Shown: piece after piece, positions 1 to 2,371 of the stretch
Layout: every line of letters begins with the position of its first letter
How positions within the stretch are numbered: the first letter of the stretch is position 1
NCBI GenBank assembly: GCA_041563215.1
Contig: JBFFNJ010000002.1
Location: forward strand, 1 to 37,210
Length of the DNA stretch: 37,210 bases
Source: Candidatus Deferrimicrobia bacterium
GTDB taxonomy: Bacteria > Desulfobacterota > Deferrimicrobia > J040
Reading direction: 5' to 3'
Made by a program: the position numbers and the translations under genes
Notes under the pieces: generated by a model
The model's database searches: none
The model's input: only the letters and a program-made list of their open reading frames with translations
Told to the model about the DNA's origin: nothing

Positions 1-337
1 CCTGGAGTGCCAGGTCGGGGTAGTTCGGGTTGGCGAAAAACGCGGCTTTGTACCTCCCGCCGATGCCGAGCAGAAGGCCCGTTTCGTCTTCATCCACATC
101 GGAATTGAGAACGCCTCCACGGCCGGTAACCTCGAAGCCGCTGTGTATACCGTAGTTCCCCCCCACGAAGAGAGCGAAAAAATCATCCGAGGAGGTTATC
201 CCCAGCTTCCCTTTCCACTTCCCCTGGTCGGAGATGGCGGCGGTGTCGAAGTTGTTCAAAAAGGCACGTGCCGTTGCCGGGATGATGAGAACAGAGACGA
301 GCAGAACACAAAGGAGCAAACAGTTTTTGGCCTTCAT
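1..337 (-). CDS. Secreted protein with N-terminal signal peptide, possibly beta-barrel or outer-membrane-like. Partial: the C-terminus runs off the window start.
   Basis: Minus-strand ATG at 337-335 is preceded by GGAGGA (revcomp of 343-348). The translation MKAKNCLLLCVLLVSVLIIPATARAFLNNFDTAAISDQGKWKGKLGITSSDDFFALFVGGNYGIHSGFEVTGRGG... stays open to position 1. It has a hydrophobic h-region plus an A-x-A-like cleavage site. Alternating aromatic/Gly-rich segments are typical of beta-strand proteins. It is missing from the ORF track because it has no stop inside the window. Confidence 0.55.
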   Translation of the reverse strand, partial: MKAKNCLLLCVLLVSVLIIPATARAFLNNFDTAAISDQGKWKGKLGITSSDDFFALFVGGNYGIHSGFEVTGRGGVLNSDVDEDETGLLLGIGGRYKAAFFANPNYPDLALQ

Positions 338-366: not shown

Positions 367-385
367 ATGTTGCAAACTGCAACAT
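367..385. promoter_or_regulatory. Perfect 8-bp inverted repeat ATGTTGCA-aac-TGCAACAT between the glutaredoxin-like gene and the downstream secreted-protein gene. Could be an operator or a weak terminator hairpin.
   Basis: Read directly: 367-374 ATGTTGCA, 375-377 aac, 378-385 TGCAACAT. It lies 13 nt after the stop at 398 and 30 nt upstream of the ATG at 337. No U-run follows immediately on the minus-strand transcript. Confidence 0.35.
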
Positions 386-397
386 TTCTTATATCCC

Positions 398-610
398 TCA
401 GGTGCCTCCGTGGCCAACCGTGACCTTCTCGCCTTCGATGATGACCGGAACCTGTCTGCCGCCGGAGATTTTTACCATTTCCTTGATCATCCCGGGGTTT
501 TTCGTGACGTCAATGTACTCGACGTCGAATCCATTTTTCGCGTAATCCTCACGGGCGCGGACCGTGTAGGGTCACGTGTCCTTTCCGAAGATCCTGACCT
601 TTTCCGACAT
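398..610 (-). CDS. Glutaredoxin/NrdH/YruB-like small thioredoxin-fold protein with in-frame TGA (572-574) read as selenocysteine. Redox motif is U-P-Y-T.
   Basis: ATG at 610-608 with GGAGG 6 nt upstream. Translation: MSEKVRIFGKDT-[TGA]-PYTVRAREDYAKNGFDVEYIDVTKNPGMIKEMVKISGGRQVPVIIEGEKVTVGHGGT, stop at 400-398. The TGA sits exactly where the first Cys of the glutaredoxin CPYC motif sits, after the beta1 strand VRIFGK. The downstream GGRQVPVI..G...VG segment matches the Grx cis-Pro / beta3-beta4 region. Confidence 0.65.
547..570 (-). other. SECIS-like hairpin immediately 3' of the in-frame UGA
   Basis: Minus-strand RNA after the UGA reads C-CCUaCACGG-UCCGCGC-CCGUGAGG. That is 8 bp with one bulged A and a 7-nt G-containing loop, starting 1 nt after the UGA. 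The position is compatible with bacterial SECIS elements, but I could not score it against a SECIS model. Confidence 0.4.
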
Positions 611-812
611 ATCCGACCTCCAACGTTTATTTTCCGCCACAACCGATCACGGGAAAGGTTTTCACCGTCTCACGGCCCCCGCCGCACTGCACAGCGCTCA
701 GATTGTGCCCGCAATCCTTTGCTTTTCGACCGGCAGGTTTACCGCGCAGCCGAAAAGGCGCTCGCCAATAAGCCGGGTTAGTAGCAATTATATATCAAGG
801 GGTGATCTATTT

Positions 813-1805
813 TTAGAAAAATCGTGCCCCCATCATGTGAAGGCGCTTTATGCGCTCTTCGATGGGAGGGTGTGTGGAGAAGAGGAACCGGTCGCCGAAA
901 CGGGTTGCCGGGGATGGGTTCAGAATGAACATGTGTCTCGTTGCCCTGTTGACCCCCTCGATCCGGGACCCGATGCGTGTCGTCTTGCGAAGTGCCGATG
1001 CCAGTGCCGACGGATTGCGTGTCATCTGTACCGCCCGGGCGTCGGCGAGGAACTCCCTCTTCCGCGATATGGCGAAACGGAGGATGGTCACGATCAGCGG
1101 CGAGAAGAGCGCGAGAAACAGGGCCGGTACAACGAGCCCGATGGAAAGGCGTGCCCTCCGGGAAAAGAGGCCGATCTTGAGAAAAAGGTCTGAAACCATG
1201 ACGACCGAGCCCACGAAGACGGAGAGAAAGAGGAAGTACCTGGTGTCCCTGCCGAGGATATGGGACACTTCGTGGGCCAGGACACCCTGGAGCTCCTCCC
1301 TGGTCAGGTTGCTGATGGCCCCTCGCGTAACGGCTATTGCGGCCTCCTTGTCGGAAAGGGCAGAGGCGAAGGCATTGATCGCGCCATCTTCGATGACGTA
1401 CACTTCCGGTGTGGTGCGCAGGCCCGAAGCGATTTTCAGCTCTTCGATAATGTTCGTGAGGAGCGTCTCCGTTTCGGCGTCGGCTTTCCTCGCGCTGTTT
1501 ACGAGGAGGGGAATCTCCTTCCCGGAGGTCATCGTGACGATGGCGAGGACCGCCAGGATGGACAGGGCGAGCATGACACCGGCAATGGTATGGCCCTGCG
1601 CCGCTCCGGTGACGTAGCCAACGAGGACTGCCGTTACGACGAGGGCTGCCGTCAAAAGGTACGAGGACCTCCTGTTTTGCTCGATCGCATCGTGGAAGGT
1701 GACCTTCTCGAGGGGCATCCTGTTAGCCGAACAAAAGGGGCATTCGGAAGGGGAGGCGGAAACAGCTCCGCCGCATCGATGACACTTTGTGCCCTGGACA
1801 GCCAT
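813..1805 (-). CDS. M48-family zinc metallopeptidase (HtpX-like) with N-terminal zinc-ribbon and transmembrane segments
   Basis: 330-aa ORF. HEVSHI (HExxH) zincin motif. N-terminal CHRCGG...CPFC pair. Several hydrophobic helices. The start lies 8 nt downstream of the LemA stop. Confidence 0.9.
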   Translation of the reverse strand: MAVQGTKCHRCGGAVSASPSECPFCSANRMPLEKVTFHDAIEQNRRSSYLLTAALVVTAVLVGYVTGAAQGHTIAGVMLALSILAVLAIVTMTSGKEIPLLVNSARKADAETETLLTNIIEELKIASGLRTTPEVYVIEDGAINAFASALSDKEAAIAVTRGAISNLTREELQGVLAHEVSHILGRDTRYFLFLSVFVGSVVMVSDLFLKIGLFSRRARLSIGLVVPALFLALFSPLIVTILRFAISRKREFLADARAVQMTRNPSALASALRKTTRIGSRIEGVNRATRHMFILNPSPATRFGDRFLFSTHPPIEERIKRLHMMGARFF

Positions 1806-1813
1806 GGATCAGA

Positions 1814-2371
1814 TCAGTTGCCAGGTACGAGATCGACCCTGATCCTCTGTTCCCTCTCGCCCCCCGTGTCGAAGTAGACCTCCTTTTCGTAGTTGAACAG
1901 CGAGCCGATGAGGTTCGAAGGGAATTTTTCGAGCTTTGTATTGTACGCCATCACACAGTCGTTGTAGAACTGGCGTGAATAGGCGATGCGGTTTTCCGTG
2001 GAAGTCAGCTCCTCCTCGAGATCCGTGACTGCCCTGTTCGCCTTGAGATCGGGGTAGCTCTCCACGACGGCGAAGAGCGACTTGAGGGCATCGGTCAGGA
2101 GGGCCGACGACTCGGCCTTCTCTTTCGGGCCCTTTGCCTGGGTAACCATGCTCCTGGCCTGTATCACCCGCTCCAGCGTATCCTTTTCGAAGCTCATGTA
2201 ATCCTTGACCACCTCGACGAGGTTGGGGATCAGGTCTATTTTCCGCCGGAGCTGGACGTCGATCTGGTGAAACGAGTTCCTGATCCTGTTTTTCATGCTC
2301 ACGAAGGCGTTGTAGGTGAGGATACCCCACCCGACTCCTGCCACGATGAGCAAAAGGGGTACATAATGCAT
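1814..2371 (-). CDS. lemA: LemA family membrane protein
   Basis: 185-aa ORF with an N-terminal TM helix. YNAFVSMKNRIRNSFHQIDVQLRRKIDLIPNLVEVVKDY and NRIAYSRQFYNDCVMAYNTKLEKFPSNL are typical LemA blocks. It forms the common LemA/peptidase pair with the next gene. Confidence 0.9.
   Translation of the reverse strand: MHYVPLLLIVAGVGWGILTYNAFVSMKNRIRNSFHQIDVQLRRKIDLIPNLVEVVKDYMSFEKDTLERVIQARSMVTQAKGPKEKAESSALLTDALKSLFAVVESYPDLKANRAVTDLEEELTSTENRIAYSRQFYNDCVMAYNTKLEKFPSNLIGSLFNYEKEVYFDTGGEREQRIRVDLVPGN

Follow-up and report, generated by a model that had tools for sequence, protein, structure and literature searches.

The closest described relatives of the gene reported here are the UXX-star selenoproteins (U, selenocysteine or Sec), a name that reportedly goes back to Haft and Tolstoy in 2025. 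Members of UXX-star family 1 (NCBIfam model NF041114) are proteins of ~70 amino acids (aa) with a glutaredoxin-like fold, a [U/C]-P-[Y/F]-T motif, a C-terminal G-G-T-U-x-x-stop tail and a selenocysteine insertion sequence (SECIS) hairpin after the stop codon. A 2026 review table lists the NF041114 family with the motif UxxT and two Sec (PMC13188914), and the UxxT 'Distant Grx-like protein 1' (Grx, glutaredoxin) figures both there and already in a 2022 review (PMC9312934). We analyzed a stretch of 37,210 nucleotides from Candidatus Deferrimicrobia bacterium (contig JBFFNJ010000002.1, hereafter the window) and in it a minus-strand gene interrupted by in-frame TGA codons. On its sequence, this unannotated gene is a member of the already curated UXX-star family 1 and not a new kind of gene; a preliminary description of the same DNA had rediscovered, from the letters alone, the first Sec of this known two-Sec family. 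Taken as a whole, the best explanation, which we hold to be very probable, is a two-Sec glutaredoxin-fold gene of UXX-star family 1 with a weak non-canonical element at its first UGA and a product acting as a small redox module.

As the preliminary description had read it, the frame opens with ATG 610-608, placed 6 nt 3' of a GGAGG (621-617), and meets TGA 574-572 (UGA-1). Direct translation then gives 57 sense codons (PYTVRAR...VGHGGT) up to TGA 400-398 (UGA-2), where that description had ended the protein. This TGA is instead the second Sec codon: GGG ATA TAA follows, with TAA 391-389 as the true stop and T-U-G-I-stop as the tail, and a canonical SECIS comes after that stop. TGA is the commonest ordinary stop of the window (12 of 21 Pfam-supported genes end with it), so the code is standard and both UGAs need site-specific recoding.

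Profile searches, for which both U were written as C, placed the protein in the family. It scored 102.4 bits against NF041114 (the NCBIfam equivalog 'UXX-star selenoprotein family 1', cutoff 72) in a match that spans the whole model (positions 1-70 of 70); the 70-aa product without the tail scored 94.4 bits (positions 1-67 of 70), the three tail residues thus adding 8 bits. Against the Pfam Glutaredoxin model PF00462 the score was 44.1 bits (cutoff 22.9) and both halves of the split frame aligned as one domain, which bears out the fold first proposed. Since both halves match PF00462 and NF041114, and since the gene DNA is identical, base for base, in five independent assemblies from different samples, the split frame is far beyond chance. 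Other models scored below their cutoffs: those of UXX-star families 2/3 and HUGP/GUXX-star (NF041211, NF047338, NF045501) gave 53-55 bits (cutoffs 97-100) and the YruB/NrdH models (TIGR02196, TIGR02194) 40 bits (cutoff 88.6). The protein is not a classical dithiol glutaredoxin (CPYC; Grx1/Grx3) either, because position 16 is Thr and TIGR02181 gives 35 bits (cutoff 90); unlike a classical glutaredoxin with its C-terminal helix, it ends three residues past the Gly-Gly turn. Among solved structures, ordinary glutaredoxins (3IC4, 3GRX) come closest, and NCBI names the relatives 'UXX-star (seleno)protein family 1'.

Relatives were collected by several routes. In a scan of species-representative genomes, both columns proved to be TGA in L001, in L002 (Desulfosarcinaceae) and in L004 (Thermodesulfovibrionales); L003 and L005 have Cys at column 1 and U-x-x-stop at the C-terminus. 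A metagenome scan, whose pattern required Cys at column 1 and so left U-first genes outside its reach, gave 80 loci, of which ~60 fit CP[YF][TC]...G-[GT]-U-x-x-stop and ~15 are ordinary YruB/Grx genes with a C-terminal helix. A single-sequence protein search found one relative, a matter of word-index sensitivity, and an alignment was used as the query instead; it found 2,689 relatives, among the matches listed chiefly 68-aa products that stop short at the tail TGA. Further double-Sec genes were reached through homologues of the downstream gene, which encodes a 206-aa protein. A pattern scan of viral contigs gave one match, which is unrelated.

Together these searches yielded nine distinct genes with TGA at both columns, from at least three lineages: a syntenic clade, Desulfosarcinaceae (L002) and Thermodesulfovibrionales (L004). 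Their proteins are only 52-75% identical and contain no frameshift or other stop. All members of the syntenic clade (L102-L113) carry UPYT and T-U-x-V-stop, and none is Cys-first. At column 13 we found TGA in the nine genes and Cys in ~60 other fetched genes as well as in thousands of database relatives, as expected from the preliminary proposal that UGA-1 stands for the nucleophilic Cys; column 71 is TGA in all. Homologues span both halves of the gene and carry Cys or Sec at the active-site column. The U-P-Y-T motif named in that description is likewise real and matches the UxxT of 'Distant Grx-like protein 1' (PMC9312934, PMC13188914); its T16 is invariant in alignment A2. The window gene belongs to the minority of the family with Sec rather than Cys at position 13.

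The conservation of the gene bears directly on whether it could be a decayed glutaredoxin pseudogene, or its TGA an assembly or sequencing error. What speaks for decay is that UGA-1 lacks a canonical SECIS and that the gene is absent from public annotations. At the double-Sec loci, public gene calls leave a gap of ~475 nt or a 54-aa fragment (L091 11560-12034; L102-L106; L110 2793-2957), the latter called 'Glutaredoxin (weak)' and starting past the first TGA. Double-Sec members are systematically missed in annotation, and the failure recurs in every public assembly that carries the window gene. Against decay stand the identical sequence in the five assemblies and the TGA at one and the same column in nine such divergent, otherwise intact genes. 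The ribosome-binding site (RBS), the start codon and both TGAs with the residues on either side are conserved, which in our judgment rules out a pseudogene or sequencing error; we regard this reading as extremely improbable. The rule offered earlier, that a SECIS score at background level would make the gene a pseudogene, was too strict, given that both TGAs and the protein on both sides of them are conserved.

The evidence for UGA-2 as a Sec codon comes from the tail and from the RNA behind it. The G-[GT]-U-x-x-stop tail occurs in ~64 homologous genes, with exactly two (rarely three) sense codons after the TGA, usually G/A-V. In the window, just two codons follow UGA-2 and the hairpin at 385-367 therefore lies wholly in the 3' untranslated region (3' UTR). 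Published constraints for bacterial SECIS elements (bSECIS) were coded in Python; no covariance model was built, as MAFFT had aligned the hairpins by sequence and not by structure. The hairpin satisfies all four constraints (-8.7 kcal/mol) and is a predicted canonical bacterial SECIS at the right distance from UGA-2. Across the family, the C-terminal UGA passes in 58 of 64 genes, the window gene included, against 18/60 control Cys codons, or 5/60 under the added demand for G[G/U]. Perfect hairpins with 6 bp or more that begin between +8 and +24 of the UGA occur in 57/68 family genes (shuffles: mean 15, maximum 22). The loops start mostly at +19 to +25 and contain GU in 48 of 63 cases (GGUC, GUU, GUC, CGUGC); a U-run follows only 2/63 hairpins, so these are not terminators. 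Within the clade the stems show compensatory changes (L001, L106, L110, L113, L107), with variants such as UGUCGCA/UGCGACA, GCCGCA/UGCGGC, GGCCCCA/UGGGGCC and UGCCCGC/GCGGGCA.

These results can be set against the model of the preliminary description, a single-Sec protein of 70 residues with TGA 400-398 as its stop and a monothiol-type single-selenol mechanism. It is true that TGA is the commonest ordinary stop in the window, and that the Cys-first relatives appear in public gene calls as 68-aa products terminated at the tail TGA. However, every relative has two (rarely three) sense codons and a stop past the tail TGA; a GU-loop hairpin of SECIS type, at fixed distance and unlike a terminator, follows in 57 or 58 of 64-68 genes; and the curated NF041114 model includes the three tail residues, worth 8 bits here. 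We consider the single-Sec model highly improbable.

The tail and its surroundings also vary in the family. Three residues follow the tail Sec in L075, L076, L078, L086 and L037 (U-T-V-H-, U-G-V-H-, U-T-I-H- and U-S-V-K-stop variants), and these genes keep a GGUC-type hairpin past the stop. At many loci (e.g. L002, L004, L107, L110, L113) a TGA also serves as the stop that closes U-x-x; a pair of TGAs 6 nt apart, the first read as Sec and the second as stop, fits a strict distance dependence of the SECIS. A CPFC subgroup (L003 265-520 and 715-3329; L031, L033, L037) has a 13-residue insert before the tail (..GDTSLRGGIPLFGGT-U-A-V). The closest database protein, P0001 (ENA, 110 aa), is 69% identical and has CPFT; its N-terminal extension of 40 residues resembles a signal peptide and would reflect either a secreted variant or a mis-called upstream start. 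At L053 a tRNA-Sec gene (1849-1947, minus strand) lies ~2 kb from an ordinary YruB-type glutaredoxin-like gene without a UXX tail.

At UGA-1, the hairpin put forward in the preliminary description (CCU-a-CACGG/CCGUG-AGG, 8 bp with one bulge and a 7-nt loop) can form and is the minimum free energy (MFE) structure locally, but it does not exceed chance: z is -1.17 for the 61-nt fold, and 25 of 200 shuffled sequences reach the same stability. The proposal that it is a SECIS did not hold. The hairpin has no G at the first two loop positions and lies merely 10 nt from the UGA, in breach of the bSECIS loop-G and spacing rules; its pairing is found in 73.6% of cells among relatives versus 73.5% in shuffles, and pair 12-22 is confined to the window. 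We conclude that this hairpin (547-570) is probably fortuitous.

An RNA-level signal is nevertheless hinted at nearby. In eight clade members five degenerate codons are invariant (T12 ACG, A19 GCC, R20 CGU, E21 GAG, Y23 UAC); their positions relative to UGA-1 are -3 to -1 and +19 to +33, whereas all 22 other conserved degenerate codons vary. The Arg codon CGU, which puts G23-U24 at the canonical distance, is used in 8/9 U-first genes versus 2/21 Cys-first genes. It falls in a candidate element (539-559) that presents G23-U24 on two apical base pairs, with a predicted energy of -5.9 kcal/mol for the window gene and between -5.5 and -7.4 kcal/mol for its relatives; the strong 3' SECIS of L107 likewise has the CGUGA pentamer as its apical loop. 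A mini-hairpin, defined as a 4-5-nt G[G/U] loop from +22 to +24 with at least 2 apical pairs and an energy of -5 kcal/mol or below, occurred in 8/9 U-first, 4/64 Cys-first and 0/26 CxxT genes, by a post hoc criterion and in counts that ignore phylogeny. Synonymous constraint and G23-U24 are, together, signs of an RNA-level signal near UGA-1. In the mechanism that we favor, UGA-1 would be recoded with the help of this weak non-canonical local element, which would show G23-U24 in a (C)GUGA loop.

All nine double-Sec genes share the same asymmetry, a strong hairpin after UGA-2 and no canonical one at UGA-1. In archaea and eukaryotes, a single SECIS is known to serve two UGA codons; we know of no description of this mode in bacteria. 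That UGA-1 is decoded without a canonical local SECIS, through a minimal CC/GG-closed (C)GUGA loop much weaker than anything the consensus model would accept or with the help of the strong 3'-UTR SECIS 174 nt downstream, is in our estimate quite unlikely. A further reading is that UGA-1 is not Sec at all but leaky (near-cognate Trp or Cys) or terminating, with little full-length protein made. The canonical SECIS missing at UGA-1 in 9/9 double-Sec genes and the weakness of the candidate element (-5.5 to -7.4 kcal/mol) would fit this. Yet the TGA is aligned exactly with the catalytic Cys, a classic Cys/Sec pair; the entire clade keeps it, with no reversion to TGC or TGT; the same mRNA bears a SECIS of proven type, so the cell decodes Sec; the local synonymous constraint and the invariant G23-U24 suggest an RNA signal; and the review gives the family two Sec (PMC13188914). 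We find a leaky or terminating UGA-1 very unlikely.

With Sec at both positions, the protein would act as a small redox module, in which Sec71, the selenol on the flexible tail, would replace the missing second Cys of CxxC and form a reversible diselenide with Sec13, or a selenenylsulfide in Cys-first relatives. In the glutaredoxin architecture the last strand leads into a Gly-Gly turn at the edge of the active site; because Sec71 directly follows this turn, the tail Sec should be able to reach residue 13. By analogy with the GCUG tail of thioredoxin reductase, it would be a resolving or shuttling residue. The monothiol-type, single-selenol mechanism suggested earlier is unlikely, as a second selenol is present in the tail.

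The same gene with its two Sec could also serve another function, not as a disulfide-type oxidoreductase but as a chalcogen clamp, formed by Sec or Cys at position 13 and the tail Sec, for a soft metal or metalloid (As, Hg, Cu or Se itself), or as a persulfide or selenide carrier. Several neighborhoods favor this. In Vicinamibacterales, Cys-first members (L095 7591-8207; L099 5260-6740) begin 15 nt downstream of an ArsR-type regulator gene (HTH_20/HTH_34) and have a divergent rhodanese gene upstream, a context that may link them to metalloid or reactive-sulfur sensing. CPFC members (L003, L031, L033 and L037 loci) adjoin an ACR3-like arsenite carrier, thioredoxin-like proteins and a CcdA-like membrane protein. 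The window clade is linked to ferritin/rubrerythrin-like genes, a hint of oxidative-stress or metal handling. On the other side, the protein shares with thiol-disulfide oxidoreductases its fold, its cis-Pro loop and the placement of its first Sec, and the neighborhood varies by lineage, which implies no single partner. We therefore see a clamp or carrier as possible, if rather unlikely.

Several points weigh against the two-Sec redox reading as a whole. No selA, selB, selC or selD gene is present within the 37-kb window. Rfam scans (the whole window at gathering thresholds, 330-640 at permissive E-values) returned no SECIS family, and the sole match is a chance snoRNA. After UGA-1, none of the nine double-Sec genes (0/9) has a bSECIS-compliant hairpin, and covariation did not rise above shuffles in three explicit structures (two of them two-tier) or in RNAalifold, whose consensus is weak (-3 kcal/mol). 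The mini-hairpin criterion was picked after the data had been seen and is uncorrected for phylogeny. As for mechanism, the Sec13-Sec71 diselenide is inferred from general knowledge of the glutaredoxin fold; members that combine CPYC with a tail Sec show that the tail is more than a stand-in for the second Cys; and metal binding is put forward in the review as another possible role (PMC13188914). The same source reports that a subset of genuine selenoprotein genes fails the bSECIS model (PMC13188914).

The features of the locus are collected in the table. On the minus strand, the order is LemA, the M48/HtpX-like gene, a 200-nt gap, the UXX-star gene, the 206-aa outer-membrane-protein-like gene and a 160-aa rubrerythrin/ferritin-like gene; beyond the last lie a convergent ferritin-like gene and an M20 peptidase gene, and this whole order is kept in L001 and L101-L114. 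The terminator-like hairpin suggests that the LemA-M48 transcript ends at 844-826 and that the UXX-star gene is transcribed separately, with its own start in the 200-nt gap. The 206-aa protein resembles an outer-membrane beta-barrel (counterpart: L091 12035-12655); it has no NCBIfam match, and a faint PF13505 match appears in one relative only. Its gene is always followed by the 160-aa rubrerythrin/ferritin-like gene and a convergent ferritin-like gene of 227-230 aa. The M48/HtpX-like protease has an N-terminal CxxC...CxxC zinc-ribbon-like segment (MAVQGTKCHRCGG...CPFCS) before its membrane and peptidase parts. On the plus strand, the open reading frame 143-781 is an antisense frame over the UXX-star gene, and no conservation argument favors it. 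The window contains no tRNA genes, and a search of it for other TGA-interrupted genes gave nothing but spurious GC-rich frames.

Table. Coordinates of the UXX-star gene, its RNA elements and the neighboring features (positions in the window; CDS, coding sequence).
Feature	Position	Strand	Basis and remarks
Complete CDS	389..610	-	73 codons + TAA; product MSEKVRIFGKDT-U-PYTVRAREDYAKNGFDVEYIDVTKNPGMIKEMVKISGGRQVPVIIEGEKVTVGHGGT-U-GI; translation, NF041114 and PF00462 matches
RBS GGAGG	617..621	-	6 nt upstream of ATG 610-608; read from sequence
UGA-1, codon 13, read as Sec	572..574	-	Cys/Sec column across relatives
Active-site motif U-P-Y-T, codons 13-16	563-574	-	UGA-1 encodes its first residue
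V-P-V, codons 54-56, cis-Pro loop of thioredoxin/glutaredoxin fold	443..451	-	Columns invariant in alignments A1, A2, A6
UGA-2, codon 71, read as Sec	398..400	-	Conserved tail layout, NF041114 gain
Tail codons GGG (Gly), ATA (Ile), then stop TAA 389-391	389..397	-	Direct reading
Predicted SECIS hairpin for UGA-2, 3' UTR	367..385	-	AUGUUGCA-GUU-UGCAACAU, 8 bp; loop G-U at +24/+25 from UGA
Hairpin of the preliminary description, loop UCCGCGC	547..570	-	+5 to +28 from UGA-1; local MFE -10.5 kcal/mol
Candidate weak non-canonical SECIS for UGA-1	539..559	-	Lower stem CGCG/CGCG, upper CC/GG, apical loop (C)GUGA
Start of downstream gene, 206-aa signal-peptide protein ending ...SYKF	1..337	-	RBS GGAGG 344-348, ATG 335-337; runs off window
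M48/HtpX-like zinc protease	813-1805	-	Pfam and NCBIfam matches; below every NCBIfam HtpX cutoff
Terminator-like hairpin + T-run	826-844	-	Terminator scan; overlaps last codons of M48/HtpX-like gene
LemA	1814-2371	-	Pfam and NCBIfam matches

With the gene recognized, the selenoproteome of an uncultured deltaproteobacterial lineage gains a two-Sec protein, and the analysis defines a syntenic clade fixed for Sec at both positions in a family that mostly has Cys at 13. If true, a Sec-Sec pair in a thioredoxin-fold protein of 73 residues would be a compact natural module for diselenide redox chemistry or chalcogen binding. With a textbook SECIS at UGA-2 and no canonical one at UGA-1 on one mRNA, the gene also offers a small system for studying how much RNA structure bacterial SelB needs; the decoding of UGA-1 is the sole point with real novelty potential.

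Several known systems share parts of this design. Animal thioredoxin reductase has a flexible C-terminal Gly-Cys-Sec-Gly tail that carries redox equivalents into and out of a buried center. It resembles the window protein in having Sec two or three residues from the C-terminus and a SECIS in the 3' UTR, but is a eukaryotic flavoenzyme with a eukaryotic SECIS in which an adjacent Cys partners the Sec, an analogy of mechanism only and not homology. YruB/NrdH-type proteins have the minimal fold, the position of the CPYC-type motif and the V-P cis-Pro loop in common with it and differ by CxxC, a C-terminal helix and the lack of Sec; ordinary members of this type were among the fetched loci (L044, L053, L058). 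Several relatives carry GCAGGUCUGC in the 3' SECIS, which we take to be as in the E. coli fdhF SECIS. Compared with the fdhF-type SECIS and the bSECIS consensus (PMC13188914, Fig. 2), the 385-367 hairpin has the same 8-bp stem and G-U loop ~24 nt from the UGA and differs in lying wholly in the 3' UTR, while the UGA-1 element is off consensus. The clostridial selenoprotein glutaredoxin (UxxC), a glutathione-dependent Grx as shown biochemically (Kim et al. 2011, cited in PMC13188914), also has Sec for the nucleophilic Cys and a SECIS after the UGA, but retains both its C-terminal helix and a resolving Cys (U-x-x-C) and lacks a tail Sec.

Within the UXX-star group, families 2/3 and the HUGP/GUXX-star fusion share the fold, the U-x-x-stop tail and the SECIS hairpin with the window gene; theirs is a full CPYC or CPFC with a GGG-U tail context, and tails of this type (CPYC...GFGGG-U-A-I-stop) are found at L034, L041, L060 and others. 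From family 1 the window copy differs in its last residue, Ile and not the usual Val, and in G-H-G-G-T in place of G-F-G-G-T; nothing essential sets it apart.

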